Shown here: positions 1-32,358 of the stretch, in pieces
Layout of the letters: the number at the start of each line of letters is the position of its first letter
How positions within the stretch are numbered: position 1 is the first letter of the stretch
Source of the DNA: an uncultured bacterium
GTDB taxonomy: Bacteria; Acidobacteriota; Aminicenantia; UBA2199
Direction of reading: 5' to 3'
Assembly: GCA_965603365.1 (NCBI GenBank)
Contig: CBFDCR010000010.1
Location: 27,425-91,424 of the forward strand
DNA length: 64,000 bases
The notes under the pieces: generated by a model
Databases searched by the model: none
Told to the model about the DNA's origin: nothing
Seen by the model: only the letters and a program-made list of their open reading frames with translations
Made by a program: the position numbers and the translations under genes

Positions 1-153
1 TGGATCACCGGTACCATCATCAACCTGGGGGCCATTATCGTCTCCTACAACTTCGATTTCCCCACCGGCTACACCCTGGTATTCCTCCACTCCATCTTCG
101 CCATTGCCTTCACCCTGATCAAAAAATCCAGAGCCCCTGAATCCCCCTGTTAA
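1..153 (+). CDS. ABC-3 family metal (Zn/Mn-type) ABC transporter permease, C-terminal fragment; the gene starts upstream of the window
   Basis: The frame is open from base 1 to TAA at 151-153. The hydrophobic tail ...IVSYNFDFPTGYTLVFLHSIFAIAFTLI resembles the last TM segment of ZnuB/MntB-type permeases (SY..D.P[ST]G motif). Confidence 0.45.
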   Translation, partial: WITGTIINLGAIIVSYNFDFPTGYTLVFLHSIFAIAFTLIKKSRAPESPC

Positions 154-320
154 ATTGCCCGTATTGGTCACCAACATGGGGGTGTTATAAAAACCCCCTG
201 TAGATGTTCGTTACTTGCTGAATAGACACAAAATATATTTTTATTGTAAATTTTTTTAGTAAAAAAATTCAAGAAGCTGCCCGAAGTGGGTTTCCCATTC
301 GTCTCAATGTATAGGATAAT

Positions 321-929: not shown

Positions 930-1864
930 GCCGGGAAGAACGAAAGAACAGTTTCCGCATCGAGGTGTATGAGGGGGAGAATCCTAAAGATAGGACCAAA
1001 AACCTGCTGGACACCGAGGTGGTACTGGAAGAGCAGAATACCGCCATCTTCGGCTTTGAGAACCCGGACGGTAATATTTACTTCCTCTCCCTTCACCGGG
1101 AGATGGATACCGAAGTCGTCGAGGAGGATGAGATCCTGGTTTCCACCCAATACCGCCCCCGGTTGATTCATTGGCTGCGCCCCCAATACCCCGAAGAGGC
1201 ATTAAAAAAGGGAGTCGAGGGCTGGGTGCGGCTCCAGGGGGGTATCGATAATAAGGGGCAGGTGGCCTATGTCAATGTCATTTCCGGCCCCCGGTTATTG
1301 AAGACGGCGGCGGTGGCCGCAGTCAAGCAGTGGCAATACCGGCCCCCCAAACCGGAGATCAAGGACGGCCAACTGCCAGTGCCCTTTACCGCAGTCATCA
1401 TCTTCAGGCTCCCCAAAGACAAACAAAAAGAAGAGTTGGCGAAAACGGGAACAAAAGATCCGGCTCCGGCCGCCGTTCCCGATATATGGCCGACCCGGGG
1501 CTACATCTCCCTCGCCTTCGGTCCCGCCAGGAGTCCCTTTACCTTAAAAGAGATGTTTCACAACGGCCTCGACATCGCGGCCAAGGCAGGCACCCCGGTG
1601 GCGGCCCCGGCCGATGGCCTGGTCACCACCGCCGGTTTTAAGGGGGATTACGGCTATTTGATCATCATCGACCACCGGAACGGTTACACCACCTGGTACG
1701 CCCATTTGCAGGCGGTCAAAGTCCGGAAAGGAGAGCAGGTGAAGAGGGGGGAAACCATCGGCTTTGTGGGCAACTCCGGCAAGAGCATGGGGCCGCACCT
1801 GCACTACGAGGTGCGGCTCAACGACAAGCCCGTCAACCCGGTGGATCTCATCGAAGAGAGATGA
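890..1864 (+). CDS. TonB C-terminal domain + M23 (LytM-type) metallopeptidase fusion protein
   Basis: A TonB_C-like segment is present (LRPQYPEEALKKGVEGWVRL...AAVAAVKQWQYRP). M23 motifs are HNGLDIAA, YLIIIDHRNGYTTWYAHL and GNSGKSMGPHLHYEV. GTG at 890 is only the first in-frame start, and the frame is open from 842. I see no signal peptide or TM segment. Confidence 0.75.
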   Translation: MFVLNGRKFGLLLSREERKNSFRIEVYEGENPKDRTKNLLDTEVVLEEQNTAIFGFENPDGNIYFLSLHREMDTEVVEEDEILVSTQYRPRLIHWLRPQYPEEALKKGVEGWVRLQGGIDNKGQVAYVNVISGPRLLKTAAVAAVKQWQYRPPKPEIKDGQLPVPFTAVIIFRLPKDKQKEELAKTGTKDPAPAAVPDIWPTRGYISLAFGPARSPFTLKEMFHNGLDIAAKAGTPVAAPADGLVTTAGFKGDYGYLIIIDHRNGYTTWYAHLQAVKVRKGEQVKRGETIGFVGNSGKSMGPHLHYEVRLNDKPVNPVDLIEER

Positions 1865-1865
1865 A

Positions 1866-2804
1866 TTACGGCTGCAGGTTGTTGAACACCGATTCGTAGA
1901 GGCAGCGGTTGATGACCGCTTCGGCGGGTTCGATCTCCGGGAAAATTGCCTGCCAGGTTTCGGAGTCCTCCATACACAGGTAGAGGGGAATATCGGGGCC
2001 CAGTTGCGAACGGATGGTGTCGCGGGCTCCGTGGAACATCGCCAACCGCAGGGGTTTGAAATAACGGTACTTACCGTCGTAGCCTTTGATCAACTCCCCG
2101 GAAAAGAGTTGAGATTCCGGGTGTTTCAATATTTCGGCCCTCAAGGCATAGGGAAAGCGCAACGTTCCTAAGCTCCACCAGGCTATTCCTTCCGGTTGAA
2201 CCACGCCGGCGATCTCCCGTATCAAAGAGTCGTAAGCATCTTGCCAGTCGCCGACAGCCAGCATGGGGTCGAAGTGAATACCGATCTTATAGCCCCGTTC
2301 CTGCACCGCGGCCATGGCAGACAGCCGGGCGGACAGTGATGGGGTACCTGTCTCCTCTTTGTCGATTATACTCTGGGGATTGAGGGACCAGGAGATCACG
2401 ATATTTTTCACTACCCCTGGGTAAGTTAAGATGTTTTTGACATTGGCCGACTTGGTCTTGAATTCAAATACCACCTGCGGATACTGTTCAAAAAGGGCCA
2501 TGATTCCGGCTGCATAGTTGGCCTGGGGTTCGTATACCAGGGAGTCGGAGAGTTCACCTGAGCCGATGCGCAAATGCTGCTTGCCTTTGACAAAGGCGGC
2601 AAGCTCTCGCTCCATATCCTCGATATTGGTGTAAAAGACCGGCTCCTTGCTCTCCAGGTAGGCCTGCAGGATGCAGTAAGAGCAGTCGTAGGCGCAGCCG
2701 GTGTGCAGATTTAGGTTATAATAACCGCAGGAGACCGTCTCCGGCGAGCAGGGGCAGTGCTTGACAAAATTTCCCTTTTGCCGTTGATACTTAATCACTG
2801 GCAT
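1866..2804 (-). CDS. spore-photoproduct-lyase-family radical SAM protein (SplB-like)
   Basis: The protein is 312 aa with an N-terminal CX3CX2C motif (CAYDCSYC). The overall layout resembles SP-lyase-like radical SAM DNA repair proteins. Confidence 0.7.
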   Translation of the reverse strand: MPVIKYQRQKGNFVKHCPCSPETVSCGYYNLNLHTGCAYDCSYCILQAYLESKEPVFYTNIEDMERELAAFVKGKQHLRIGSGELSDSLVYEPQANYAAGIMALFEQYPQVVFEFKTKSANVKNILTYPGVVKNIVISWSLNPQSIIDKEETGTPSLSARLSAMAAVQERGYKIGIHFDPMLAVGDWQDAYDSLIREIAGVVQPEGIAWWSLGTLRFPYALRAEILKHPESQLFSGELIKGYDGKYRYFKPLRLAMFHGARDTIRSQLGPDIPLYLCMEDSETWQAIFPEIEPAEAVINRCLYESVFNNLQP

Positions 2805-2952
2805 ATAGTATCAATTTCCCCCCCCAATTTCAAGGCCACCATCCCAACCCCCATGTGCCAAACCTGGCCTGATCCCCAATCTATAAATATCATCATGCTA
2901 TCTCCTCTAAATGATTGAATACTACAGCCAGGAAAAGATGTCAAGTTTCTTT

Positions 2953-2969
2953 GTGTCTCGAAACGCTGC
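2953..2969. promoter_or_regulatory. upstream element copy 1 (GTGTCTCGAAACGCTGC), candidate enhancer-binding-protein site
   Basis: This is an exact 17-bp direct repeat of 3122..3138. It contains the imperfect dyad GTCTCGAAAC centred on TCGA and lies about 265 bp upstream of the sigma-54 element. Confidence 0.45.
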
Positions 2970-3121
2970 ATCTCTGAAATCCCTGGAAAGTATTGATATA
3001 AAAGCGGCAGTGCGTGATAAGGAGTCCCGGAGACAACTTTAGTGTAGGGAAACGGTACAAAGTTGAAAATATCTTATAGCAAAGGCTAAAGGGGGATAAT
3101 ACGGTTTTTGATGGGGGACGG

Positions 3122-3138
3122 GTGTCTCGAAACGCTGC
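3122..3138. promoter_or_regulatory. upstream element copy 2 (GTGTCTCGAAACGCTGC), candidate enhancer-binding-protein site
   Basis: This is an exact 17-bp copy of 2953..2969. It lies about 95 bp upstream of the -24 element, a typical UAS distance for sigma-54 activators, with AT-rich DNA in between. Confidence 0.5.
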
Positions 3139-3216
3139 GTTTTTGCGTGAGTACTCAAATTTGATAAAACGCCCTATATCCTCTAAATAAGACCGTTTTG
3201 AGCCTTTTTTTCAAGT

Positions 3217-3231
3217 TGGCACCATAGTTGC
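3217..3231 (+). promoter_or_regulatory. sigma-54 (RpoN) -24/-12 promoter
   Basis: TGGCAC-catag-TTGC matches the TGGCAC-N5-TTGC consensus exactly, with GG at 3218-3219 and GC at 3230-3231. It lies about 125 nt upstream of the first precursor ATG. Confidence 0.7.
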
Positions 3232-3355
3232 CCTTTCTTAAGAGTCAATCGTCTTTAAAACATAAGGACACCGTCGCTATCCTCGGACGGGTAGATGCGG
3301 GGTTCGTTTTAAAGTGTCCGGGTTGGCAAAAAATAAAACAAGGAGGATTAACACA

Positions 3356-3556
3356 ATGAAAATAAAGAAATTTAAGAACAGCGGTAATCACATCAAGGTC
3401 CAGAACCTGCGCAATGGTGAGATGCGGGCAGTGCGGGGAGGAACAGAGTATACCTGCGGCGGTGGAAGTGGTGATGACTGTACAAAGTTGGCAGTCCATG
3501 TGCCAGATGCTATGGCGATGGCGGAAAAAGCCGATCTTTTGTCAGTGTACAAATAA
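3356..3556 (+). CDS. RiPP-type precursor peptide A (66 aa; 29-aa leader ending RGG, Cys-containing core)
   Basis: ATG at 3356 follows RBS AGGAGGA (3341-3347). Sequence: MKIKKFKNSGNHIKVQNLRNGEMRAVRGG|TEYTCGGGSGDDCTKLAVHVPDAMAMAEKADLLSVYK. The leader resembles double-glycine bacteriocin leaders. It is paralogous to the next ORF and lies directly upstream of an RRE-containing radical SAM enzyme. Confidence 0.8.
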   Translation: MKIKKFKNSGNHIKVQNLRNGEMRAVRGGTEYTCGGGSGDDCTKLAVHVPDAMAMAEKADLLSVYK

Positions 3557-3582
3557 TAATTAAAATTTAAGGAGGAGAAAAA

Positions 3583-3777
3583 ATGAAAAAGACAACCAAT
3601 TTAAACGACCGTAAACACCTCTCCGTCCAGAAACTCCGCAACAGCGAGTTGAAGGCAACTTTAGCAGGTGAAATCATTACTTGCGGCTATGAAGGTGACC
3701 TTTGCAAGAAACTCTCTGTCGAGGTCCCTGGATGTGAAACCCTTCAGAATGAAAGCCACAAAGTGGTCTTAAGTTAG
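3583..3777 (+). CDS. RiPP-type precursor peptide B (64 aa; 29-aa leader ending LAG, 3-Cys core)
   Basis: ATG at 3583 follows RBS GGAGGAG. Sequence: MKKTTNLNDRKHLSVQKLRNSELKATLAG|EIITCGYEGDLCKKLSVEVPGCETLQNESHKVVLS. It shares the leader positions H12, VQ.LRN.E..A and G29 with peptide A, and the core motif TCG..GD.C.KL.V.VP. Confidence 0.8.
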   Translation: MKKTTNLNDRKHLSVQKLRNSELKATLAGEIITCGYEGDLCKKLSVEVPGCETLQNESHKVVLS

Positions 3778-3796
3778 CAAGCAATGCGCCCACAAA

Positions 3797-3852
3797 AGAA
3801 TCCGGTCTCGTATATCCGTCGATATATGAGACTGGATTCTTCTATTTTGTTT
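3797..3852 (+). terminator. long hairpin plus U-tract after the precursor genes (intrinsic terminator or attenuator)
   Basis: Bases 3797-3815 pair with 3822-3840 (19 bp: 17 Watson-Crick and 2 G-U) around the 6-nt loop CCGTCG. The T-rich tract TCTATTTTGTTT follows. The structure sits between precursor B and the first maturase gene. Confidence 0.6.
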
Positions 3853-3886
3853 GAGGATAATATAAGAGGATCAGGAGGTAAACAAA

Positions 3887-5494
3887 ATGAGACTTGAAAC
3901 ACCGCAGTGCAACGATCAGGAGCCAAAAATTACAGGTTCATTCAGAGATGGACTCTTCGGTAATTTACCGGTCGAATTGTTTCGCAGCAAACGGGGCTAT
4001 TACGCTTTCGATGCCCATAACGTGCGCATGGTGACCGTAGACCGGGTGAGTTACGATATTTTGCGGATCTTGCGGGAGCGTGAGGCAGGGGTAGATGAGA
4101 TCGTACGCCTTCTTGACCACCATCCTGCCAAACAGGTTCGAGAGGCGTTTGAGGAATTGATGGCTGTACAGGACGAAGGCTTTCTTCGTCGAGGCAGTTT
4201 TCGTCGCACCCCCCGCTTTGGCAAAACGGATATCCGCATGAAGCAGCGCCTTACCGAGGAGATGGCAGGGTTAACCATATCAATAACCGGCAAGTGCAAT
4301 CTGGCCTGTTCCTACTGCATCTATGGCGGGAACTACGACGCCCAGCGGCAGCTTTGCGGTGCCAGCATGAGTTGGGAGACCTTGAAAAATGCCATGATCT
4401 TCCTGGCCGATAATTCACGCCGTTCCGAAAGCGTACAGGTGGATTTTTTTGGCGGTGAACCGCTTCTTGAACACCGGCTCATCAAACGGGCGGTGGAGTT
4501 CCTGAAATCCCGTATTGGAACAAGAGAGACAAGAGTGGACGTTACTGTGGCGTCAAACGGCACCATATTAAACGACCGCATCCTGGAGTTTCTTGTCAAG
4601 CATAAAGTCTACCTCCAGTTCAGTATTGACGGCAGCCAGGAACAGCACGATCGCTACAGGATCTTCAAGGCGAATCGCCGGGGTAGTTTCAAAAAGATCA
4701 TGGAGAACCTGAAGAAAATCCACATCTTCGATCCGGAGTACTATCGCTCCTATATTCGCATCAAATCGGTTCAGACATCCGATCAAGACAACAGCCATGA
4801 CGATGCGTTCTGGCAGCATCCCCTCGTCAAACCGGTGGTGGAGGAAAAACACTTATCGGTCCTGCAGCTCAGGCCAGACTTTAACATCGAAAAAGATGGT
4901 GACTATTTTGACAGACTTGCCCGCATCGGGGAGCGATCACTGGCGCTGCGTAATGTTGAGACCCTGGATGATGTGCGCCAGGCTTTCCCACAAAAAGAGT
5001 GGCAATTTTTCTACTCTACTATCGCCAGATTCTTTAATGTTCAGGCGACCTACAATCTCTACAAGCGTGATAAGGCCGAAGTTCCCTTTACCAAGGGATG
5101 CTTATACGGATATAAAGAAGGGAATGTAGAACCCTCGGGCAAGATAACCATTTGTCATCTGGCCACCAATTGGGTCATCGGCGACGTTAATGAAGGGCGC
5201 TGGTATTTCGACAGGATTCGCAAATACGACCAACGTGTCCACAGTTGGCGTCCCTGCTCCGGTTGTTTTGCTCAACGTTTTTGTGATCTTTGTCCTGAAA
5301 AAATCGACGGTACAGAGGAAAATTATATAGAAAGCCGCAGCCGTTTTTGCGAGTTTCAGAGGGAAAACTACCGGGCTATATTCTCTTACGCGCTGGCGTT
5401 GTGTGAGGCGAATCCCGGGCTTTGGGACGAAGTGGATCGTTTAATCGAAGTGGGTTATCGCCGCGAGGAGAAAAAAAACAAGAAGGCTGCCTGA
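3887..5494 (+). CDS. radical SAM/SPASM-type peptide maturase with an N-terminal PqqD-like RiPP recognition element
   Basis: RBS AGGAGG is present. The CX3CX2C motif CNLACSYC lies at 4295-4318. The N-terminal ~100 aa look like a winged-helix RRE (VDRVSYDILRILREREAGVDEIVRLL...EELMAVQDEGFL). The C-terminal auxiliary-cluster Cys pattern is CSGCFAQRFCDLC...FCEF. Confidence 0.8.
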   Translation: MRLETPQCNDQEPKITGSFRDGLFGNLPVELFRSKRGYYAFDAHNVRMVTVDRVSYDILRILREREAGVDEIVRLLDHHPAKQVREAFEELMAVQDEGFLRRGSFRRTPRFGKTDIRMKQRLTEEMAGLTISITGKCNLACSYCIYGGNYDAQRQLCGASMSWETLKNAMIFLADNSRRSESVQVDFFGGEPLLEHRLIKRAVEFLKSRIGTRETRVDVTVASNGTILNDRILEFLVKHKVYLQFSIDGSQEQHDRYRIFKANRRGSFKKIMENLKKIHIFDPEYYRSYIRIKSVQTSDQDNSHDDAFWQHPLVKPVVEEKHLSVLQLRPDFNIEKDGDYFDRLARIGERSLALRNVETLDDVRQAFPQKEWQFFYSTIARFFNVQATYNLYKRDKAEVPFTKGCLYGYKEGNVEPSGKITICHLATNWVIGDVNEGRWYFDRIRKYDQRVHSWRPCSGCFAQRFCDLCPEKIDGTEENYIESRSRFCEFQRENYRAIFSYALALCEANPGLWDEVDRLIEVGYRREEKKNKKAA

Positions 5495-5539: not shown

Positions 5540-6661
5540 ATGAAAAAGCTGTATTTTATAGTCGTTTTATCGGGTCTTTTATATTTTTGTGGTTCTCAGG
5601 CAAAGAATATAGATAAACCCACTCAGGGTGAATGGGATTTTAAATTGAAAAAAGCCTGGGAAATCGGGCAAATAGGCGAAGATGTTCTGGTTGGGATTCG
5701 GGGGATTGGCGTAAATAAAGAGGGAAATCTTTTTTTATGGGACAGCCGGCAATCTACAGTATTCGTATGTAATTCCCAGGGCCAGTTATTATACCACTTT
5801 GGAAGTAGAGGAGAGGGACCGGGTGAAGTACTGGATAAATGGGCGACTCGCCTGTTTCTTACCGATAAGCATATCATTCTTCATGAAGTAAACACCGGCA
5901 GAATTCACTACTTTTCAGACAATGGAGAGTTCGAGAAAACCGAAAAAATATTAAAATTGAAATATGCCCGAGCCTTAAAAACATTTATTGATCCCGACCG
6001 GTTTTTGTTTTTTTTAGCTGAAGAACCTTCGGATAAACATGAAAATATCCTTGGCATTTATGACCTGTCAACTAAAAATTATGAAGTAATAACCAGAATG
6101 CCTGGAAACAAACCTCTGTCTGTAAATGATGAAAAAGCGGGAAATATAACTTTGCATGACCATGATGTTGCTGCTGCTGTAATATGTGCTCAATTTGAGA
6201 AAAAAAAAATATTTTATGGAAGAAATGATGAATATGTCATAACGGGAGTAGATTTAAAAATTAAAAAAACTATCTCCTTCTCCATAACCGGAAGAAAAGG
6301 TAGAAAAATTAGCGAAAAAACAAAAAATAAAAGATTTAGAAATTTGCCTATAAATAAACAATTATTAAAGCTGCTAATTAAAAAGTGTCCGGATAGAACA
6401 AGATTCTTTAACCGGATATTCATTGAAAAGACGGGATTAATATATGTATTTGTGCCCGATTGGGAAAAGACAAACTCTCTTGAAATAGATATATTTTCTC
6501 CAGAAGGAAAATATCTTTATCATTCAATAATCCGGATACCGGATGAATATAACAAAATTCGCAACCTTACTTTTAATTATAAAGATCTTTACTTTACCGC
6601 CGAAGATCAAAACGGCGAGATTAAATTAGTAAAATTTAATATTACCTCTCCAACAATATAA
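5540..6661 (+). CDS. lipoprotein, 6-bladed beta-propeller-like family (unknown function)
   Basis: The signal peptide has a lipobox-like Cys (MKKLYFIVVLSGLLYFCGS). Repetitive beta-strand-rich sequence ends in ...GEIKLVKFNI, typical of TolB-like or '6-bladed beta-propeller' paralog families. The gene is visibly more AT-rich than its neighbours. Confidence 0.6.
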   Translation: MKKLYFIVVLSGLLYFCGSQAKNIDKPTQGEWDFKLKKAWEIGQIGEDVLVGIRGIGVNKEGNLFLWDSRQSTVFVCNSQGQLLYHFGSRGEGPGEVLDKWATRLFLTDKHIILHEVNTGRIHYFSDNGEFEKTEKILKLKYARALKTFIDPDRFLFFLAEEPSDKHENILGIYDLSTKNYEVITRMPGNKPLSVNDEKAGNITLHDHDVAAAVICAQFEKKKIFYGRNDEYVITGVDLKIKKTISFSITGRKGRKISEKTKNKRFRNLPINKQLLKLLIKKCPDRTRFFNRIFIEKTGLIYVFVPDWEKTNSLEIDIFSPEGKYLYHSIIRIPDEYNKIRNLTFNYKDLYFTAEDQNGEIKLVKFNITSPTI

Positions 6662-6714: not shown

Positions 6715-6743
6715 TTGACAATAACATCTTCTATCACTATAAT
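6715..6743 (+). promoter_or_regulatory. consensus sigma-70 promoter (TTGACA-N17-TATAAT)
   Basis: TTGACA lies at 6715-6720, followed by an exact 17-nt spacer and TATAAT at 6738-6743. The element is about 170 nt upstream of the ATG at 6914. Confidence 0.6.
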
Positions 6744-6913: not shown

Positions 6914-8431
6914 ATGGGCAGAGCAGTACGTGAGGGATTGCCATTTGGCAAAGAGACACCTATTGAGGTAATCGAGAAGATTGGAAAGGACGGCCTCTCA
7001 GGTGGAGTATCGGATGTGTGTTTGTTTCCAACATACAAATGCGACCTGAATTGCTACATGTGCCATGTGCAGCACACCAGGGGCAAGGACGATCCATACT
7101 TGTCCCCGGGGCAGCTAAAAGAGGTATTTGACGATGTGAAGGTAACTACGATGTTCCATCTAGGCGGCGAGCCGTTCGTAAGGCCCGAAATGATGGAAAT
7201 TCTCAAATACTTCGATTCCAGGAGGACGAACCAGATCATTTCCACTAATGGTACCAATGTGACCGAGACAATGGCTGAGGAATTAGCCAGGTTGAAACAT
7301 CTGGTATGTGTCCAGGTCTCCTTGAACGGAACGGGGGAAAATGACAATATCATAAGAGGGTCTTCAAAGGCCTTTGAAACGACAGTTGAAGGTATCAAAA
7401 TCCTTAAAAAGGCAGGTCTTCAAACGTGGATCCACAGCGTGGTCCTGAACGAAAATATCGACGATCTGGCAAACATTGTAAGGCTCGGTGGAGAACTGGG
7501 GGTTGGCATGGTCAATTTCCTTTTCGGCCAGATGATGTCGGCAGAAGAGGCAAAGAAAACAAAGGATGTCATCAGGAAGTGGATAGGCGAAGAGGTGGAT
7601 ATAGGGGGATACATTGGGGAAATCGCTTATTCGAAGGAGCAATTGATCAACAGCGTAAATGCGGCAAAAGAGGAAGGAAAGAGGCTCGGCCTTCAGGTCA
7701 TGTTCTTTCCCCGTGTGTTTGGAGATAAACCGGAGATTTATTGGGATGGTACATTGCTGGAGCAAGAAAGGCCCATATGCCAGATGACCCTCATGCCGCC
7801 CCTTACCCCCATTGTGGGACCCGAAGGAGATGTTTACGGGTGCTGTATAGTAAACAAGAGCTTTGGAAATGTAAAGGAGCAATCATTAGAAGAGATATGG
7901 GATTCGCCCACACTTCGGGCATTCAGGCGGGGCCTTATCAATGACAAACTAATGCCCGTCTGTAAACGCTGTCCCAGCGGTGACATCATCGACCTCTCCG
8001 CCCCCAGGAGGCAATTATTTGCCGACCTTGCCGCCTGGGAGGCATACCTGGAACGCCTGACCAGAGCACTCAATGACCTACCCGAGCTTTCACCTGTCTT
8101 GAATAATATTGCCCCGGTGAGGTTCCAATACGAAATTAGCGATCGCCCCGAATATAACTACTGGCACGTTTTTGAGAAGGACGAGGTTCGCCTGGGGTTG
8201 GGAATAAATAGAGAGGATAATATTCCCAGGCTCATCCATAAGACCGACTTTGATACCCTCAATAAAGTGAATGCAGGTGAAATAAACCCTATCCAGGCAA
8301 CCATGGATGGTACCTATGCCGTAGATGGCGAGATGTCGAAGCTCATGGCCTGCGCCCCGTTAATTCCGCTGACCATCAAGGCACATGGCATCGCCATTGC
8401 GGATGTTAAAGATACCGACAGGGAGGGATGA
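6914..8431 (+). CDS. radical SAM enzyme with a partial SPASM/twitch Cys region and a C-terminal SCP2-like domain (paralog 1)
   Basis: RBS GGGAGG is present. CDLNCYMC lies at 7040-7063. The mid-protein region reads PICQMT...GDVYGCC...GNVKEQSLEEIWDS...PVCKRCP. The C-terminal ~100 aa match the SCP2 pattern (HKTDFDTLNKVNAGEINPIQATMDGTYAVDGEMSKLMACAPL). Confidence 0.75.
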   Translation: MGRAVREGLPFGKETPIEVIEKIGKDGLSGGVSDVCLFPTYKCDLNCYMCHVQHTRGKDDPYLSPGQLKEVFDDVKVTTMFHLGGEPFVRPEMMEILKYFDSRRTNQIISTNGTNVTETMAEELARLKHLVCVQVSLNGTGENDNIIRGSSKAFETTVEGIKILKKAGLQTWIHSVVLNENIDDLANIVRLGGELGVGMVNFLFGQMMSAEEAKKTKDVIRKWIGEEVDIGGYIGEIAYSKEQLINSVNAAKEEGKRLGLQVMFFPRVFGDKPEIYWDGTLLEQERPICQMTLMPPLTPIVGPEGDVYGCCIVNKSFGNVKEQSLEEIWDSPTLRAFRRGLINDKLMPVCKRCPSGDIIDLSAPRRQLFADLAAWEAYLERLTRALNDLPELSPVLNNIAPVRFQYEISDRPEYNYWHVFEKDEVRLGLGINREDNIPRLIHKTDFDTLNKVNAGEINPIQATMDGTYAVDGEMSKLMACAPLIPLTIKAHGIAIADVKDTDREG

Positions 8432-8434
8432 ATA

Positions 8435-9952
8435 ATGGTAGTAGAGAAAATAGGCTGCGGTGTGAGCAGGCGCGAAGGGATGCCCCTGGGCAAGGATACG
8501 CCGCTAGAGGTCATTCAAAAGATCGGGGCAAGCGGACTTTCCGGTGGAATTCACGATGTTTGCTATTACCCGACCTTCAAGTGCGACTTGAATTGTTACA
8601 TGTGCCTTGTAAAGCACAGGAAGGATAATATTGTCACTCCTATGTCCTCAGAGCAGGCGAAGACTGCCTTTAGGGATGTTAAAACCTTATTCTATCTAGG
8701 AGGAGAGCCCTTCACGTGCGGCAATACCCTGGAATTAATGAAACACTTCGACGATAATGGAATAAACCAGATCATCTCCACAAACGGAATCCACATCACC
8801 CAATCCACGGCAGAGAAGCTGGCGGAACTGAAAAAGCTGGTTGTCATACAGGTCTCATTGAATGGCTCGGGCGAAAATGATAACGGCATAAGAGGATGGT
8901 CACAGGCATTTGAAACAACGGTAGATGGCATCAAGGTTCTCACTAATGCCGGCTTACCCGTATGGATTCACTGCGTGATATTGAACGAAAACATAGACGA
9001 TCTTGTTAATGTTGTCAAACTGGGTGTGGAGTTGGGGGTTGACGCGGTTAATTTCATCTTTGCCCATGTGACGACCCCCGAAGAGATCCAGGCCACGAAA
9101 GAACTATTGAAGGAATGGACCGGCCAAGATGTGGAGGTGAATGGTTACGTTGGGGAATTGTCATATTCGGAAGAGCAATTGGTAAACAGCATCAATGCCG
9201 TAAAGGAAGAGGGAAGAAAAAATGGCATCCAGATCATGTTTTTTTCAAAATTGTTCGGGGACAGACCCGAACTCTACTGGCAGGGAAAATTACTGGAGCA
9301 AGAAAACCCCATTTGCCAATTAACCCTGATGCCACCGCTTACTCCGGCCATCGGACCCGATGGTGACGTTTTTTTATGTCCCTACATCGAAAAGAGTTTC
9401 GGTAACGTGAACACAGCTACCCTGGAGGACATCTGGGACTCGGAACAACTTCAAGCCATCCGCAGGGGAATGATCAACGGTAAGATGTTGCCCATTTGCA
9501 GACGCTGCCCTTGCAGCGATGAGATCAATACGCCCACATCTGGAGAACAAGGGGCCGTGAACAAAGCCCTCTGGGAAACTTATTTAAAGAACTTAACCAA
9601 AGCGCTCAATGATCTCCCGGAGGTTCGACCTATTTTAGAAAATCTCGCCTATGCCCCCGTGGTCTTCCAATACCACATCACCAATCGCCCCGAATTTAAC
9701 TACTGGCATGCCTTTAGAAAGGATGGTATCTACCTGGGTATGGGTGAGAACGAGGAAGAAGATGTCACAAAGCTCATCCACTCCACCGACCTTGATACCC
9801 TGAGAAAGGTAAATTCAGGGGAAGCAAATCCCGTGCAAGCGACCATGGCAGGAACCTACTCCGTGGATGGTGACATGACGATCCTCATGTCCTGTTCGCC
9901 GTTACTACCGTTAACGGTAACAGCACACGCTATTACTGCCAGGCAAGATTAA
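8435..9952 (+). CDS. radical SAM enzyme with a partial SPASM/twitch Cys region and a C-terminal SCP2-like domain (paralog 2, tandem duplicate)
   Basis: The gene starts 3 nt after the previous stop. It is the same length (505 aa) and colinear with 6914..8431. CDLNCYMC lies at 8582-8605. It carries PICQLT...GDVFLCP...GNVNTATLEDIWDS...PICRRCPC and the SCP2-like tail (HSTDLDTLRKVNSGEANPVQATMAGTYSVDGDMTILMSCSPL). Confidence 0.75.
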   Translation: MVVEKIGCGVSRREGMPLGKDTPLEVIQKIGASGLSGGIHDVCYYPTFKCDLNCYMCLVKHRKDNIVTPMSSEQAKTAFRDVKTLFYLGGEPFTCGNTLELMKHFDDNGINQIISTNGIHITQSTAEKLAELKKLVVIQVSLNGSGENDNGIRGWSQAFETTVDGIKVLTNAGLPVWIHCVILNENIDDLVNVVKLGVELGVDAVNFIFAHVTTPEEIQATKELLKEWTGQDVEVNGYVGELSYSEEQLVNSINAVKEEGRKNGIQIMFFSKLFGDRPELYWQGKLLEQENPICQLTLMPPLTPAIGPDGDVFLCPYIEKSFGNVNTATLEDIWDSEQLQAIRRGMINGKMLPICRRCPCSDEINTPTSGEQGAVNKALWETYLKNLTKALNDLPEVRPILENLAYAPVVFQYHITNRPEFNYWHAFRKDGIYLGMGENEEEDVTKLIHSTDLDTLRKVNSGEANPVQATMAGTYSVDGDMTILMSCSPLLPLTVTAHAITARQD

Positions 9953-9968: not shown

Positions 9969-11333
9969 TTGAGAATGGATTGGGAAGCCGAGGTTGGAGA
10001 GATATTTAAAAAACTTGTTGCCCAGGTTCCGGACCAGTTCCGTCCCATGGTGGAGCCGCTGCTGCACGACACTGCAGAGAAAAAATGCGTCGAGAGGAAC
10101 GCCGGCGTGGTCAATAATGACGACCTGATAACCGCTCTGTTCGATATTACCCCCGAGCCCTTCAAGGCCCAGGCCATAGACAACTGCAAGGCCATCGGCA
10201 TTGACCCGCAGAGATATATAGAGCTCAAAGAGGTACAGGAACAGTATAAATTAAGCTGGGAGAAGTTCGGCAAGGCGTTTCACCCTGGCAACAAGCACTT
10301 CGCCATGTACATTACGGACAGGTGCAACCAGAAATGCCTCCACTGTGCCGCAGATTCCGAAGAGCATCGGGAGGAGCTTTCCACCGACCGGTGGATACAG
10401 ATCGTGGAGAACCTCGAATTCGGCCTTCGTAAGGAGGGGAGGCGCGGGGTCTACATATGGTTCGGCGGGGAGCCCACCTGCCGCCAGGACCTACCCGAGC
10501 TGATCAAGTACTGCGGCGATAAAGGATACCACCAGGCCTTGATCACCAATGGTATACTTTTCGACGAGGACCTGGCAAAGTTCTGTGCCGACAACGGTAT
10601 GGGCCACCTGTTCGTCAGCTTCGACAGCGCAGACCCTGAAAAGAACGACAGGATCAGGGGCGCAGCCCATTCACTCGAGTATGCCAGAAAGGCAGTGGAA
10701 AACGCCCTCAAGTACGGGATATTCGCCTGCGGCTCCACCACCGTAATGAAACAGAACATCGATGAACTGGAGGATATAAAGAAGATGGCCGAGGCGTGGG
10801 GGGCTGCCCCCTATTTCAGGGCGGTGGTGAAGCAGAAGAAGGCGGCCGAGAACTGGGACGAGATCGGGCTTTCTACCGAGGAATACAAGACGCTGTACGA
10901 TTTCAAGTACACACATGTCATCGATGCCATAAGGGAGGGGAAGGGTGAGGCCCTGCCCATATACTCCATCTTCGAGATGGTGCCCTTTATGGAAAAACCC
11001 CTGAATAACAAGGAGCTCACGGCTCTGGAGTGGGGCGTTGGTTGTCAGGCCTGCCGGATATTCAACGGCATCGATGTCAACGGCGATGTCTTTCCCTGCG
11101 GCTATCCCTCCAACCTGATACTGGGCAATGCCCTTACAGACAGCTTTGAAGACATCATGAACTCACAAATCTACAAGGATATTCGCGATAGAAAACGTAA
11201 CGGAAAATGCGCTGGATGCCACCACCTCGATCTCTGCGGTGGGGGGTGCAGGGTACATGCAGAATGCGATACCGGCGACTTTTTCGCCTCCTTTTCATAT
11301 TGCTGGCACCAAAACGACCACCACCATGCTTAA
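9969..11333 (+). CDS. radical SAM/SPASM enzyme with an N-terminal PCP_red-like helical domain and a His-rich C-terminus
   Basis: CNQKCLHC lies at 10323-10346. A full 7-Cys SPASM pattern is present (CQAC...PCGY...GKCAGCHHLDLCGGGC). The N-terminal ~95 aa (DWEAEVGEIFKKLVAQVPDQFRPMVEP...) resemble the PF08369-type domain. The protein ends WHQNDHHHA. Confidence 0.75.
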   Translation: MRMDWEAEVGEIFKKLVAQVPDQFRPMVEPLLHDTAEKKCVERNAGVVNNDDLITALFDITPEPFKAQAIDNCKAIGIDPQRYIELKEVQEQYKLSWEKFGKAFHPGNKHFAMYITDRCNQKCLHCAADSEEHREELSTDRWIQIVENLEFGLRKEGRRGVYIWFGGEPTCRQDLPELIKYCGDKGYHQALITNGILFDEDLAKFCADNGMGHLFVSFDSADPEKNDRIRGAAHSLEYARKAVENALKYGIFACGSTTVMKQNIDELEDIKKMAEAWGAAPYFRAVVKQKKAAENWDEIGLSTEEYKTLYDFKYTHVIDAIREGKGEALPIYSIFEMVPFMEKPLNNKELTALEWGVGCQACRIFNGIDVNGDVFPCGYPSNLILGNALTDSFEDIMNSQIYKDIRDRKRNGKCAGCHHLDLCGGGCRVHAECDTGDFFASFSYCWHQNDHHHA

Positions 11334-12577
11334 CGGCCGTAGAGTTGGGGGATGATCTCCTGCCTGGTGTATACTTTTCCCTTCAGGTCCACGTAGACCA
11401 CCTGGTCTGTGGTCTCCACTCGCCAGAAGGGGTAGGCCCGGCTGTAGGTGAGGTTACAGGGGGTAAAGACCATGGTGGCCCTGATCTCGCTCGTTACGTC
11501 CCGGCTCTCCAGTTTCAAGAATCCTGAAGCCGCCTTGATCGCCTCATCTTTCGGGAGATATTCGACGGGGCGGCCAAAAGAGGCGACCTCCTCAAAATCC
11601 CCGGTAGAGCCGTTAATGATCACACTGATGCTGGAGCGATCCTGATCGACCTCGCTGTTTAAGGCAGAAGTAAAATTATCGCCCGCTTTGGCATAGGGAA
11701 TGATGTAGTAGTAGGGAACCCATTCGGCCTCGGCCATTTCAAAGGTGATCTCTTCCCGCACCAGGATCGGCTCCAGATTTTGGGTATCTCCGTCGTCCAA
11801 CGCTGCGTACGACGGGTGTTTGGCAGCCAGATCCAATTGGTCGATATAGTTTTCAGAGTACTGCAGGGCCTCGGCCTCCGAAAGCTCGGGTGTGCCTCTT
11901 CGATCCACCAGATCGGCACTCACCGATCCCTGGATGTCCGGGGGTTCGATAAGGGCCACATATTTGTTGTACCAGGTGCCCGTGAGGGTGACGGGATTTT
12001 GCCACCTGGTATCGTACCAGACCGTGCCGGTCATGGTACTGACCTGGCCGACGCCGATAGGCCAGGGGTCGTGGATGGTGATTTCCAACAGTTCGGGGTC
12101 GCTGCCCCAGACCGGCTCGATATCGGTCACATAGCCCACCACGTCGACCCAGTGGTAACCGCTGTTGACCAGGGTGGTAACGGGGTAACTGTTGTAATTC
12201 ATCCAGAAGAGGATCTGGAACATCAGTTCTTCCCGTACATCGTATGACTTGAGCGACCATATCCCCACCTGGGGTGGGTTGAGAGTCGGGTCCATCAGGG
12301 TGCCCCGCATACCCTCAGGGTCGGTGGCCCAGCCCGGTTCGCCGCTGTTGTAGGTCTGGATGAAGGTCCATAGATAAGATTGTTCAAAATAGATGGATGG
12401 GTAGGGGTCGGGATAACCGTTAAAGATCATCTGGGCACAGGCAGGCCCGCTCCAGATGCTGTTTTCCTGGCCGTACAGGGGGATCGTCAATGCCACCTCG
12501 TAGTCGGCTAAGAGGGCTGTCTGAAGGCCCAGTAACAGAAAAATGATGCAAAAAACCGTTGAGATTCGTCTTAACAT
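11330..12577 (-). CDS. secreted papain-fold cysteine peptidase, C39-like (Peptidase_C39_2-type), with a C-terminal PepSY-like region
   Basis: A signal peptide is present. The catalytic-Cys context is QENSIWSGPACAQMI, with downstream GYHWVDVVGY and IHDPW as His and Asp/Asn candidates. Its stop codon overlaps the convergent radical SAM gene's stop (TTAA). Confidence 0.6.
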   Translation of the reverse strand: MLRRISTVFCIIFLLLGLQTALLADYEVALTIPLYGQENSIWSGPACAQMIFNGYPDPYPSIYFEQSYLWTFIQTYNSGEPGWATDPEGMRGTLMDPTLNPPQVGIWSLKSYDVREELMFQILFWMNYNSYPVTTLVNSGYHWVDVVGYVTDIEPVWGSDPELLEITIHDPWPIGVGQVSTMTGTVWYDTRWQNPVTLTGTWYNKYVALIEPPDIQGSVSADLVDRRGTPELSEAEALQYSENYIDQLDLAAKHPSYAALDDGDTQNLEPILVREEITFEMAEAEWVPYYYIIPYAKAGDNFTSALNSEVDQDRSSISVIINGSTGDFEEVASFGRPVEYLPKDEAIKAASGFLKLESRDVTSEIRATMVFTPCNLTYSRAYPFWRVETTDQVVYVDLKGKVYTRQEIIPQLYGR

Positions 12578-12607: not shown

Positions 12608-13567
12608 CTAGCCGCCGTAATAGGGGATGGGATAGGCGGCGGCATAACCCACGTAATTACAACCGTAGATAATCCACATAAAACCACCCTCGGTTTCTTG
12701 ATCGATTCGACCGTCTCCGTTGATATCTACGCCGCCCCAGTCGGTGTCCCAGGAGTTCTTCAGCAGCCAGGCGCCGGCAGGCCCCAGGCTGTCGTCCCAG
12801 CCGCATAAGGCCACACAGTGGTTGAGCTCGGAACCTGTGCAGTGGTCAAACACACCGCCGCTGTAGGCCTGGAACCAATAATCGGCGACGATGCCCACCG
12901 CCACCGAGCCGTAATCCATGATGGCCTGTTTGATGTCGTTCACCGGCGGAACACTGCCGCTGTTTCCCACCCAATCCCAATCGTAGATGAAATAGAGATG
13001 GGAGCAGGAGTGATTACAGGGTTTTTTATAGCCCACATAGGGATAACAGGTCTCTGTCAGCGCGCCCTCGTTCATGAACATGTAAAAATTGATAAAGCCC
13101 CCCTGGCAGCTCCAGCCCCAGGGGTTACAGTCCAACAGCCACTGCTCCGATAGATCCTCTTCGGTGCTCATCATCTTCTTGATCAGTCCCTCGACAGCAC
13201 TCGCCATGCAGAAGGCCCAGCAACTGCCGCAGGCCCCCTGATCCTTGGCCGGCGTATAATAACCGATGTAGCGGGAGGGCAGATCCAATCGGACGGTGAA
13301 ATTCTGATCGTCGGCTTCCACTCTGGTGCTGGTCTCCCCCATGGCCAGCTCCGTCTTAAAACAACATAACTGGCTCAAGGGATACTGGCAGGCGGAGTTG
13401 TAGTCCACCGTGAAGGAATAGCCCCTCTCGTTAATCTCCTTTCTCATTTGTTCCAGTTGGTCTTGCCAATCGTTCTCGCTGATTGTTGTGGTTCCCTTTA
13501 TTCCTGTTACCAGGATTAATGAGAAAACCACAATCGTTAAAGAAAAAACAAGGAAAAATTTTTTCAT
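12608..13567 (-). CDS. secreted papain-family (C1A) cysteine peptidase
   Basis: A signal peptide is present, and the canonical motifs are KDQGACGSCWAF (Cys), LNHCVALCGW (His) and LLKNSWDTDWG (Asn). Confidence 0.85.
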   Translation of the reverse strand: MKKFFLVFSLTIVVFSLILVTGIKGTTTISENDWQDQLEQMRKEINERGYSFTVDYNSACQYPLSQLCCFKTELAMGETSTRVEADDQNFTVRLDLPSRYIGYYTPAKDQGACGSCWAFCMASAVEGLIKKMMSTEEDLSEQWLLDCNPWGWSCQGGFINFYMFMNEGALTETCYPYVGYKKPCNHSCSHLYFIYDWDWVGNSGSVPPVNDIKQAIMDYGSVAVGIVADYWFQAYSGGVFDHCTGSELNHCVALCGWDDSLGPAGAWLLKNSWDTDWGGVDINGDGRIDQETEGGFMWIIYGCNYVGYAAAYPIPYYGG

Positions 13568-30534: not shown

Positions 30535-32358
30535 ATGAAGCAGCGATTTAGAGTAAAATTTGTGCAATTGCCGATTCCCGAAATCGAACATCTCTACAGG
30601 GAGGGAAACATCCCGCTGGCGGCCGGTTATTTGAAGGCCTATGCCCTGGGCCGGGGGGTCGCCCGGGACCAGGATATCCAGATCATTCCCCGGGATATTG
30701 CCAACTTCGGCGGCGATGCCGCCGTGATAAAGTGGCTGATGCAGGACAGGCCGACGCTGGTGGGATTCACTTCCTATATGTGGAACATCGAGCGCAACCT
30801 CTGGCTGGCCCGACAGCTAAAAGAGCAAGACCCGGCTGTCAAGATCATACTGGGGGGACCGGAAATTACCCCCTACCGGTTGCTGGCCGAGGACAGCAGC
30901 ATCGATGCCGGTGTGGCCGGGGAGGGGGAGCAGGCCTTTCTCGATCTGCTGTCGGCTTTTGGCAACCGGCAGTTGCAAAAGCGGATTTATTATAGGGAAG
31001 AGCCGGTCGATTTGTCGGCACTGCCGAATCCCTACCTGGAAAAGATCGTGGTGCCGCAGCCGGGGGAGCCGCTATTTTTAGAGACCATGCGGGGCTGCCC
31101 CTATGCCTGTAAATACTGCTTTTATGCAAGTTTATATCGGGGTATGCGGTTTTTTCCGGATCGTCATCTCCCCGATATATTCGCGCTGGCCCGGGCCTGC
31201 GGGGTGCCGGAGATCTTTCTGATGGACCCCTCCTTCAATGTGGCCCCCGGGATAGCGGATCGGCTAAAGGGGCTGGCTCGATTGAATACTTCCGGGATCC
31301 CCCTGCATACGGAGATGCGGCTGGAGGCGGTGACTCCCGGGATCGCCCAATTGATGGAGGCGGCGGGATTCCGATCGGTGGAGGTGGGCCTGCAGTCGGT
31401 CAATCCCCGGTCATTGGCGGCCATCGGTCGGAGCTGGGACCGGCATAAATTTATCGAGGGCGCAAAACGGCTCCAAAATCACGGCATCGATATCAAAACC
31501 GGCGTGATCCTGGGACTGCCCCACGACGGCATCGGCGATTTTAGCCGCACCCTGGATTTTGTCCTGGATTTAAATCTAACAGAATCGCTGGAAATCTATC
31601 CCCTGTCGATGTTGCCCGGCACCAGGCTGCGGGACGAAGCCCGTGACCTGGGCATGACCTTCATGCCCAGGCCCCCTTATTGGGTACTGTCCACGCCGCA
31701 GATGTCGGCCGACGACTTCAAGATCGCCGTCACCCTGGCCGAAGAGAAGCTGGATATCGAGTTTTTCCCGCCCCTCATTCCCCGTTTCGGCAATGGCCAG
31801 TCCCGGTCCCATTACCTCTGTTTCCTGGATTTGCGCAAAGATATTGATGCCCGCCTGAACTACTTGTACCGACAGCCCGAGAAGCTGGGACACAGCCTGA
31901 CGATCCTGGTCCATCGGGATGTCGATACCGCCGCCAGGATAGACCGGCTGGCCCGCTGGCTGCAGCGGCAGAGCCCCTTTACCCTGGTGCAACTGGTGAT
32001 GGAGCACGACACCCTGCCGGCAGTGGAAGATATCCGGCTCCTGGCCAATTCCTTTTCGCCTGAGCCCCACTATTTTGACCGCATCCACCACTATAAAGTA
32101 GACCGGCAGCAAACCTATTCGTTCCGCTTCTTCCTGCTCACCCCCCGGCTCGATACTGCGGAGAAATTCCTGCACACGCCGCAGTACGGCGACCTGGTGC
32201 TGAAATACACGCCGGAGCTGCTGTCGGAGGGCCGCCATATTCTGGCAGAGCATCCGATTCTTCTGGTGGATACCCCCATTGCCGATCGGGAAAGGGAGGA
32301 ACTTCGGGGGATTTATGCCGATTTTGAACAACTGCTGATCTTTCGGAATGGCTGGTGA
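30535..32358 (+). CDS. B12-binding-domain radical SAM protein
   Basis: The N-terminal B12-binding-like region reads LVGFTSYMWN...KIILGGPE. The radical SAM motif is CPYACKYC. Confidence 0.8.
   Translation: MKQRFRVKFVQLPIPEIEHLYREGNIPLAAGYLKAYALGRGVARDQDIQIIPRDIANFGGDAAVIKWLMQDRPTLVGFTSYMWNIERNLWLARQLKEQDPAVKIILGGPEITPYRLLAEDSSIDAGVAGEGEQAFLDLLSAFGNRQLQKRIYYREEPVDLSALPNPYLEKIVVPQPGEPLFLETMRGCPYACKYCFYASLYRGMRFFPDRHLPDIFALARACGVPEIFLMDPSFNVAPGIADRLKGLARLNTSGIPLHTEMRLEAVTPGIAQLMEAAGFRSVEVGLQSVNPRSLAAIGRSWDRHKFIEGAKRLQNHGIDIKTGVILGLPHDGIGDFSRTLDFVLDLNLTESLEIYPLSMLPGTRLRDEARDLGMTFMPRPPYWVLSTPQMSADDFKIAVTLAEEKLDIEFFPPLIPRFGNGQSRSHYLCFLDLRKDIDARLNYLYRQPEKLGHSLTILVHRDVDTAARIDRLARWLQRQSPFTLVQLVMEHDTLPAVEDIRLLANSFSPEPHYFDRIHHYKVDRQQTYSFRFFLLTPRLDTAEKFLHTPQYGDLVLKYTPELLSEGRHILAEHPILLVDTPIADREREELRGIYADFEQLLIFRNGW

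Follow-up and report, generated by a model that had tools for sequence, protein, structure and literature searches.

QhpC, the thioether-bridged gamma subunit of quinohemoprotein amine dehydrogenase, is matured by the enzyme QhpD and sits on the beta-propeller subunit of the dehydrogenase. Thuricin CD, from Firmicutes, is a two-component sactibiotic whose component peptides, Trn-alpha as well as Trn-beta, have three cysteines each, and whose system includes two radical S-adenosylmethionine (radical-SAM) enzymes (PMC12093266). Regarding the enzymes, six residues have been described as being in proximity of the catalytic site of CteB: F112, F152, T186, S210, H363 and Q364 (PMC10288494). Here we examine a gene cassette that resembles these systems to various extents. 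It lies in a stretch of 64,000 nucleotides (referred to as the window) from the genome of an uncultured bacterium of the Aminicenantia (Acidobacteriota, contig CBFDCR010000010.1, positions 27,425 to 91,424), and consists of two tandem genes for small peptides, A and B, followed by the gene of a radical-SAM/SPASM enzyme. We consider it very likely that A and B are precursors of peptides that are synthesized ribosomally and modified post-translationally (RiPPs), and that this enzyme modifies them. The comparison of sequences and structural models makes thioether cross-linking of the cysteines the probable modification, although we hold this with clearly less assurance, and with a similar reserve we assign the cassette to an uncharacterized, sacti/ranthipeptide-type RiPP family of Aminicenantes-type and other environmental bacteria. 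The coordinates of all features are collected in Table 1.

A and B are paralogues, and their similarity is far beyond chance: in a single BLASTP comparison they align over 43 residues (8–50) with 49% identity and E=2e-12. The two open reading frames (ORFs) are found where an initial annotation, made from the sequence alone, had placed them, and the residues that it had listed as common to both leaders (M1, K2, H12, V15, Q16, L18, R19, N20, E22, A25 and G29) are all reproduced by the alignment, which adds N8 to the list. The same is true of the common core past the leader, which the pairwise alignment gives as T33-C34-G-x(2-3)-G-D-x-C-x-K-L-x-V-x-V-P. The cysteines are C34 and C42 in A, and C34, C41 and C51 in B. 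Orthologues of A are present in the loci L002, L009, L010, L015 and L016 and also in P0107, P0109, P0111 and P0113; orthologues of B are present in L002, L009, L010, L015 (two copies) and L016 and also in P0108, P0112 and P0115. Codon-level comparison of these orthologues gives dN/dS ratios of 0.11–0.20 for A and 0.08–0.28 for B, where computable (pN is 0.08–0.29, and pS ranges from 0.34 up to saturation), which shows that both ORFs are protein-coding genes under purifying selection.

The orthologues also tell which features of the pair are peculiar to the window. Both leaders are indeed 29 residues long here, as the initial annotation had emphasized, but the leaders of A and B differ in length in other loci (26 vs 21 in L010, 25 vs 30 in L016): the equal length is a coincidence. 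The third cysteine of B is real, but only the window and L009 have it, so it is no family feature. Last, A and B cannot be aligned with one another after V-x-V-P, but their divergence is not as complete as it seemed from this one pair, since the orthologues of A, and likewise those of B, keep the tail of their own type.

The peptide genes are in every case linked to radical-SAM/SPASM enzymes of a single, distinct family. The related loci were obtained from a genome scan, a metagenome scan, exact-protein look-ups and a protein homologue search with contig look-ups; the enzyme scans of metagenomes and genomes returned four and five loci, respectively, with several duplicates, and most of the breadth comes from the homologue search and the contig look-ups. 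The initial annotation had made its proposal depend on homologous peptides being found next to homologous radical-SAM genes elsewhere, and this arrangement is observed in 12 distinct loci, in which the identity of the enzyme to that of the window ranges from 36% to 83%. At least five other loci of the Aminicenantes type have an A and B pair upstream of the orthologous enzyme gene, and the pairing is conserved in six loci of this type. The order A, B, radical-SAM gene, propeller gene (see below) is found in L002, L010 and L016, while on the short contigs L009 and L015 the peptide genes are followed by the beginning of the enzyme gene. In L015, three precursor genes in the order B, A, B (2..175, 971..1165 and 1197..1391) precede the enzyme, which shows that the number of precursor genes differs from locus to locus. 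In L001, one divergent peptide accompanies the radical-SAM gene. The nearest named relatives are metagenome-assembled genomes (MAGs) of Candidatus Aminicenantes.

The linkage extends well beyond these close relatives. Two-cysteine peptides stand beside enzymes of only 36–46% identity in L017, L018, L020, L021, L022 and L023, one of which carries a Deltaproteobacteria label. There are two peptides each in L017, L020 and L021, and one each in L018, L022 and L023, as in L001; in the sequences of the distant peptides given in Table 1, a space sets leader and core apart wherever a G-G/G-A junction can be seen. A profile made from A and B returned five further sequences only from 5.8 billion clustered proteins, and an exhaustive HMMER scan, run with the alignment of the peptides over 1.84 billion representatives, gave 15 matches, all of which belong to the same family, so that there is no wider peptide superfamily at the sequence level. 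The source databases give the peptides no name and the enzymes no other label than 'radical SAM protein'.

The enzyme of the window matches the Pfam Radical_SAM model with E=1e-15. The CX3CX2C motif (C137-x3-C141-x2-C144) is invariant in 42 aligned members of the family, and so are seven SPASM cysteines (C405-x12-G-x4-C423, C457-x2-C460-x5-C466-x2-C469 and C488), despite which no match of the Pfam SPASM model to the maturase was reported. In the AlphaFold2 (AF2) model of the maturase (predicted local distance difference test, pLDDT, 88; predicted template modelling score, pTM, 0.86), residues 29–96 form three strands (29–33, 38–42 and 47–51) followed by three helices (53–64, 69–75 and 81–96). 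This predicted beta3-alpha3 arrangement is like that of a RiPP recognition element (RRE) of the PqqD type, and the N-terminal region aligns, both in sequence and in fold, to the N-terminal domain of CteB. CteB (5WGG), the SCIFF thioether synthase, is also the best match of the whole enzyme, be it in a sequence search (E=8e-25) or in a Foldseek search of the PDB (E=2e-21 over 506 columns), in which it is followed by anSME, ChlB, TigE and SuiB, the epimerase EpeE being significant too. In NCBIfam the best matches are to the Cys-thioether enzymes CcpM, RumMC, the SCIFF maturase, PapB and the lachnocin maturase, in each case far below the cut-off. The top NCBIfam matches of four distant members are likewise Cys-thioether enzymes, below the cut-offs. 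The homologues form two tiers, close orthologues (68–99% identity) and a broad clade (36–48%, 65 clusters), some members of which are labelled Deltaproteobacteria or Pyrinomonadaceae. Altogether the family amounts to 74 clusters at 90% identity. Its members score at least 367 bits and the score then falls abruptly to 144 bits, at CcpM; this gap indicates that the enzymes form a distinct, unnamed family.

The architecture of the peptides was tabulated for 33 distinct sequences. A family peptide usually has two cysteines, rarely three. Cys2 is present in all 33 peptides and Cys1 in 32, 3 to 10 residues apart, and an Asp or Glu occupies position -1 or -2 relative to Cys2 in 29 of them. The pattern x-x-[LFI]-x-[VIT]-x-h directly follows Cys2; then come a loop and a second motif that resembles a beta-strand, at or near the C-terminus. 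For this motif the A-type peptides have DLLS[VI]Y, the B-type peptides HKV[VI]L (HKVVK in one variant), and those of the remaining and distant peptides include HTVDIY, LTVVL, SLTVFI, KLNVVVV and SLTVNM. When the segment after Cys2 is compared with the C-terminal motif, the summed BLOSUM62 score is 223, vs 158 ± 16.5 for shuffled tails (0 of 1000 shuffles), a comparison that must not be read as a probability since the peptides are related. The tail is constrained, and to judge from these sequences it looks like a partner strand of the strand that follows Cys2. The initial annotation had opposed a conserved Cys box and KLxVxVP segment to otherwise free variation. The Cys box is indeed the most conserved part of the core, but Thr33 and Pro49/50 are not conserved across the family, and the idea of free variation outside the box has to be abandoned: the C-terminal heptads are conserved and echo the strand after Cys2, and so the modified or recognized region need not be confined to the box.

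In the leaders, the most persistent feature across the family is a short I/V-x-V/I-x-x-L strand, which is HIKVQNL or HLSVQKL in the window and elsewhere RIAVKKL, SLIRDLG, MIKVINL or PAIVRTV. The sequence L18-R-N-x-E22-[ML]-x-A25 precedes the junction in both peptides of the window (G28-G29 in A, A28-G29 in B). In L001, P0113 and P0116, insertions of 10–14 residues occur exactly between G-G/G-A and the core's x-Y-[AST]-C, which marks the boundary between leader and core. The likeness to double-glycine leaders, which had been noted at the outset, is plausible but weak. In its favour, G-G or A-G is kept in most relatives, and the distant L022 peptide passes the TIGR04149 model (26.3 vs 25 bits). 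On the other hand, the matches in the window are below the cut-offs (TIGR04149 vs A, 13 bits, E=0.073, and PF14406 vs B, 13.6 bits, E=0.083, the cut-off being 25 in both cases; B gives no TIGR04149 match), and the peptides of L020 and L023, three distant members, are without GG. Cleavage after G29 is plausible on the same grounds. In the related loci, no called gene was found to encode a C39 peptidase or an ABC transporter. PmbA/TldD-type proteases process some RiPP leaders; a gene pair of this type occurs in L010 (2737..5314, + strand), some 2.5 kb upstream of the cassette, from which genes on the opposite strand separate it, and it was not seen in other loci. In L001, a MAG of Aminicenantes, a small ORF with a different GG leader (…KIHEVKGG SPLIEDGLVVSVSNNISLCKTKTEPWCPIWA; 4217..4426, - strand) lies divergently some 800 nt upstream of the family peptide, and may be an unrelated second type of precursor.

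The cassette is preceded by a sigma-54-type promoter element, the sole exact TGGCAC-N5-TTGC of the window. The motif TGGCA[CTA]-N5-TTGC[TA] also lies upstream of the first peptide gene, at a distance of 195–262 nt, in L001, L002, L010, L015 and L016, the five other loci of the Aminicenantes type whose upstream sequence is long enough; L017 has a weaker site in front of its first peptide gene. Genes for sigma-54 activators are present upstream in L017 and L018; there is none among the 30 scanned ORFs of the window. Between the promoter and the ribosome-binding site of A, the 5' untranslated region (5'UTR) contains a three-helix hairpin. In a RNAalifold alignment of six loci, 10 of its 31 pairs show compensatory changes and 90% of the cells are paired, vs 40–46% with slid partners; the observed covariation was reached in none of 500 shuffles. 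This hairpin could be a new, cassette-specific RNA that acts in cis as a regulator or stabilizes the mRNA. A second structure, a stem-loop detected by a terminator scan, separates gene B from the maturase gene (minimum free energy -35 kcal/mol, z=-4.9); 18 pairs of its stem are conserved in six loci, three of them with compensatory changes, and it would be a terminator/attenuator-like or mRNA-stabilizing element. The Rfam scan of 2700..4000 at E<=1 returned no known family for either structure. In RiPP operons, such as those of lantibiotics, a hairpin between precursor and enzyme genes typically results in more precursor than enzyme transcript.

Regarding the genes downstream, that of a predicted propeller lipoprotein directly follows the maturase gene in L002, L010, L012 and L016, and in every complete Aminicenantes-type locus. 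This protein is a lineage-specific accessory, possibly with a role in binding or in self-protection at the envelope. A general link between the propeller family and GG-leader peptides was considered and rejected: paralogues of 38% and 54% identity have no small GG-leader ORF beside them. The next three genes code for further radical-SAM/SPASM proteins, two of which are 505-residue paralogues with a C-terminal SCP2 (sterol-carrier-like) domain and almost no N-terminal extension that could be an RRE; the third has 454 residues and a helical N-terminal extension of 110 residues. We treat this trio as a separate unit because it is absent from the related loci, has its own promoter match and, in two of the proteins, ends in an SCP2-like domain. 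No small precursor ORF is evident nearby. The two genes that follow, convergent with the radical-SAM genes, encode a secreted protein of 415 residues and a papain-family protease; they are not conserved near the cassette elsewhere, and we leave them out of the system. That the 415-residue protein might be C39-like was considered and rejected, having no support from Pfam or NCBIfam. Immediately upstream of the cassette is a gene for a spore-photoproduct-lyase-like radical-SAM protein (1866..2804, - strand), and a B12-binding radical-SAM gene is found at 30535..32358 (+ strand). The window contains six radical-SAM genes, including that of the cassette maturase.

Table 1. Features of the cassette, of its surroundings and of related loci (positions are those of the window or of the locus named)
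Feature	Locus	Position	Strand	Size	Remarks
Peptide A precursor gene	Window	3356..3556	+	66 aa	AGGAGG Shine-Dalgarno 9 nt before ATG
Peptide A leader	Window	3356..3442		aa 1-29	
Peptide A Cys box	Window	3452..3505		T33-P50	
Peptide A tail DLLSVYK	Window	3533..3553	+	aa 60-66	Conserved
Peptide B precursor gene	Window	3583..3777	+	64 aa	AGGAGG 7 nt upstream
Peptide B leader	Window	3583..3669		aa 1-29	
Peptide B Cys box	Window	3679..3729		T33-P49	
Peptide B tail HKVVLS	Window	3757..3774	+	aa 59-64	Conserved
Radical-SAM/SPASM peptide maturase	Window	3887..5494	+	535 aa	N-terminal RRE-like domain
Sigma-54-type promoter element TGGCACCATAGTTGC (-24 GG / -12 GC)	Window	3217..3231	+		Consensus match, 139 nt upstream of A ATG
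Structured 5'UTR, three-helix hairpin	Window	3244..3327	+	~85 nt, 31 pairs	Between promoter and Shine-Dalgarno
Stem-loop, then T-rich tract	Window	3796..3841	+	20-21 bp	Between gene B and maturase gene
Predicted lipoprotein, 6-bladed beta-propeller (DUF5128/NHL-like)	Window	5540..6661	+		Pfam PF17170 E=3e-5; ScyF NHL E=7e-6
Further radical-SAM/SPASM gene	Window	6914..8431	+		
Further radical-SAM/SPASM gene	Window	8435..9952	+		
Further radical-SAM/SPASM gene	Window	9969..11333	+		
Secreted protein	Window	11330..12577	-	415 aa	No Pfam or NCBIfam match
Papain-family (Peptidase_C1) cysteine protease	Window	12608..13567	-		Adjoins 415-aa secreted protein
Sigma-54-type site	L001	5008..5023			
Sigma-54-type site	L002	193..208			
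Sigma-54-type site	L010	7568..7583			
Sigma-54-type site	L015	757..772			
Sigma-54-type site	L016	5224..5239			
Two peptides	L017				Upstream of enzyme; ...TGG ATYECPRDCNKLVVIFGNKADRFTVEL; ...TGG GIAACPGDCNKLTVVTSAKEQLTIVVN
Two peptides	L021				Upstream of enzyme; ...RGG RCSYGKHVCSKLVVEAKPTRLTVVL...; ...RGG SYTCPSQKCKRLVVVVEARGTHKVVVVR
One peptide	L018				Upstream of enzyme; ...KGA KCTYQDDFIYISCGDGITVNIEMAAWSLTVNM
One peptide	L022				Upstream of enzyme; ...HGGGG CSYIDDKHAFFCASFTITFENQTESLNFIFVD
Two peptides, without GG	L020				Downstream of enzyme; ...FECPGDCAKLTVDTLQGQPSWLVVNL; ...FKCPGDCKSLTVVPGAHSATPKSLTVFI
One peptide	L023				Downstream of enzyme; ...FTCPGDCKKLTVVVVQAQPEKLNVVVVAKP

We propose the following mechanism for the maturation of A and B. 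The RRE of the enzyme would bind the conserved leader strand (H-I/L-x-V/I-Q/H-x-L, or I-x-V-x-x-L family-wide). The maturase would then abstract a hydrogen from an acceptor residue and join this acceptor to the thiols of Cys34 and Cys41/42, the product having two intramolecular thioether bridges of the sactionine or ranthionine type. These bridges would lock a two-stranded unit, in which strand 1 is K-L-x-V-x-V and strand 2, after a variable loop, is DLLSVYK or HKVVLS. A candidate acceptor is the near-invariant Asp that precedes Cys2, which would give a ranthipeptide-like Cys-Xn-Asp ring as in the substrates of PapB and QhpD; it may also be, in addition or instead, that the acceptors are within the two strands, as in a sactipeptide-like hairpin. 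The leader would be removed at or near G28-G29 in A and A28-G29 in B by a protease encoded outside the cassette. A and B, which are paired in most loci, probably act together. Expression would start at the sigma-54-type promoter and proceed through the structured 5'UTR, and the stem-loop after gene B would likely keep the mRNA of the precursors in excess over that of the maturase.

Several observations weigh against this picture. The enzyme reaches 214 bits with CcpM (TIGR04068, cut-off 500), 141 with the SCIFF maturase (TIGR03974, 425), 139 with PapB (NF047865, 340), 147 with RumMC (NF035951, 720) and 112 with QhpD (TIGR03906, 453), so that no thioether-family cut-off is passed. Its second-best fold match, anSME, is not a cross-linker. 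The CteB proximity residues map, by sequence alignment, to I145, F188, A222, S246, H424 and L425, and three of the six are identical (I-F-A-S-H-L here vs F-F-T-S-H-Q in CteB). As for the substrates, an acidic residue before Cys2 is missing from four peptides of the family, and in one B-type lineage (ITWGSSGDLCEKL; L002 659..841, also L007, L008 and P0105; three contigs) a Trp replaces Cys1, which shows that two bridges are not obligatory. The AF2 model of unmodified peptide A (alignment of 20 sequences), with a pLDDT of 55 and only short strands at 31–33 and 44–46, is too weak to establish the two-strand picture. Most of these points would fit an enzyme that modifies A and B without making Cys thioethers, by a formylglycine-type oxidation, an L-to-D epimerization of the Val/Ile/Leu-rich strands or a C-C/C-O cross-link, the cysteines being cluster ligands or forming a disulfide or a metal site; the significant fold matches to ChlB, SuiB and EpeE as well as anSME, and the abundance of beta-branched residues in the cores, go in the same direction. 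On the contrary, the best matches in sequence and in fold are consistently thioether enzymes, even for the four distant members, and the single invariant core residue in the 33 peptides is a cysteine. We consider a chemistry other than Cys thioethers unlikely, and keep thioether cross-linking as the probable one.

No leader peptidase or exporter was found among the 30 scanned ORFs of the window, in which Pfam detects neither a Peptidase_C39 nor an ABC transporter domain; such genes may be elsewhere in the genome. This also weighs against the proposed mechanism, in which the cleavage site and the export are putative, but it does not help the view that A and B are unmodified bacteriocin-like or signalling peptides with double-glycine leaders, next to an unrelated radical-SAM gene: no peptidase-containing ABC transporter is nearby. 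That view takes advantage of the resemblance of the leaders to the GG type and of the fact that the modification of A and B is inferred only. It is very improbable, since peptide and enzyme stay linked from 99% to as little as 36% enzyme identity, across differently labelled lineages and even where the peptides lie downstream of the enzyme, which moreover has an RRE-like domain. By analogy with QhpC, the cross-linked peptides could instead be small subunits or ligands of the periplasmic propeller lipoprotein rather than free natural products. QhpD is among the top matches (112–179 bits), the propeller gene is a constant companion of the maturase gene in complete Aminicenantes-type loci, and the Cys-Xn-Asp spacing resembles that of QhpC-type rings. 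However, the propeller gene is missing from all six distant loci, its paralogues (38–54% identity) stand alone with neither peptides nor radical-SAM genes, which also weakens the case for the propeller as a part of the system, and we see no cytochrome, no QhpE/F-like genes and, in most peptides, no Trp from which a quinone cofactor could be made; we give this possibility little credence. As little likely as unmodified peptides is a multiply modified product, tailored also by the three extra radical-SAM/SPASM enzymes: their genes are on the same strand, directly after the cassette, but they are absent from L016 and L010, which both extend past the propeller gene, and are separated from the latter by a 253-bp gap with a perfect sigma-70-type match (TTGACA-17-TATAAT, 6715..6743), and the 505-residue proteins have nearly no room for an RRE. 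Last, a bolder elaboration of the thioether mechanism, which we find only slightly less doubtful than the QhpC-like reading, would be a new topology in which the two N-terminal cysteines staple a pair of pseudo-repeated L-T-V-x-V strands into a compact, cross-braced beta-unit; in Aminicenantes, the products of A and B would act as one two-component species, handled by the propeller lipoprotein or docked to it in a QhpC/QhpB-like manner, with a sigma-54 activator and the new 5'UTR RNA gating the expression.

Uncharacterized RiPP families with radical-SAM enzymes are numerous, and the cassette is not a new principle. If confirmed experimentally, it would be a new precursor/maturase family within the sactipeptide/ranthipeptide world. 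Full-text literature searches, which included the names of the profile models, RiPPs of Aminicenantes and the propeller family, returned no description of this peptide/enzyme family. It spans metagenome bins of the Aminicenantes/Acidobacteriota type and bins labelled Deltaproteobacteria, whose hosts are uncultured and whose peptide chemistry is essentially unknown. The substrate motif is compact: Cys1, 3 to 10 residues, an acidic residue, Cys2, strand 1, loop, strand 2. The natural variants (Trp at Cys1, short C-P-G-D-C loops, peptides without Asp) are a ready-made mutational series for establishing the connectivity of the rings, and the single-Cys lineage with Trp at Cys1 should be useful for telling which bridge is essential. 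The combination of a sigma-54 promoter, a covarying 5'UTR hairpin and an intergenic stem-loop also makes the cassette a tidy case for studying how the levels of precursor and enzyme are set.

The comparison with known systems suggests that the cassette works like thioether systems of the SCIFF/CteB, CcpM, PapB or QhpD type, with a precursor motif that matches none of them. The closest is SCIFF/CteA-CteB (TIGR03973/TIGR03974; PDB 5WGG, 5WHY): CteB, the best match, likewise combines an RRE, a radical-SAM barrel and a SPASM domain with seven Cys, and the distant loci, like those of SCIFF, consist of one or two small Cys peptides and one enzyme, with no dedicated protease or transporter. However, the SCIFF precursor has six cysteines in forty-five residues, while the peptides considered here, for which NCBIfam gives no SCIFF match, have two or three, a GG-type leader, a precursor pair A/B and, in the Aminicenantes clade, a lipoprotein propeller. 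CcpM (TIGR04068) is the top curated model for this enzyme and for four distant members (201–222 bits, nearly full length), but these scores are far below the cut-off of 500 bits, and the precursors here are not Cys-rich.

The leaders are reminiscent of the GG-Bacteroidales (TIGR04149/TIGR04148) and Bacteroid_pep (PF14406) families, with their K-rich N-terminus and L-x-N-x-E-M/L-x-A-x-x-G-G pattern; the core motif is different, and the maturase scores 125 bits vs a cut-off of 300 with TIGR04148. PapB/freyrasin, QhpD/QhpC and NxxcB, which form Cys-to-Asp/Glu/Asn thioethers, come to mind because of the acidic residue near Cys (C-x2-5-D and D-x0-1-C), although there is one box per peptide here, and not repeated CX3D motifs. 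With thuricin CD, the differences are that one enzyme and two cysteines are present here, and that the synergy of A and B is inferred from their conserved pairing; the likeness is in the two different, adjacent precursor genes, the N-terminal Cys donors and a C-terminal half that is hydrophobic and could bend back into a hairpin.

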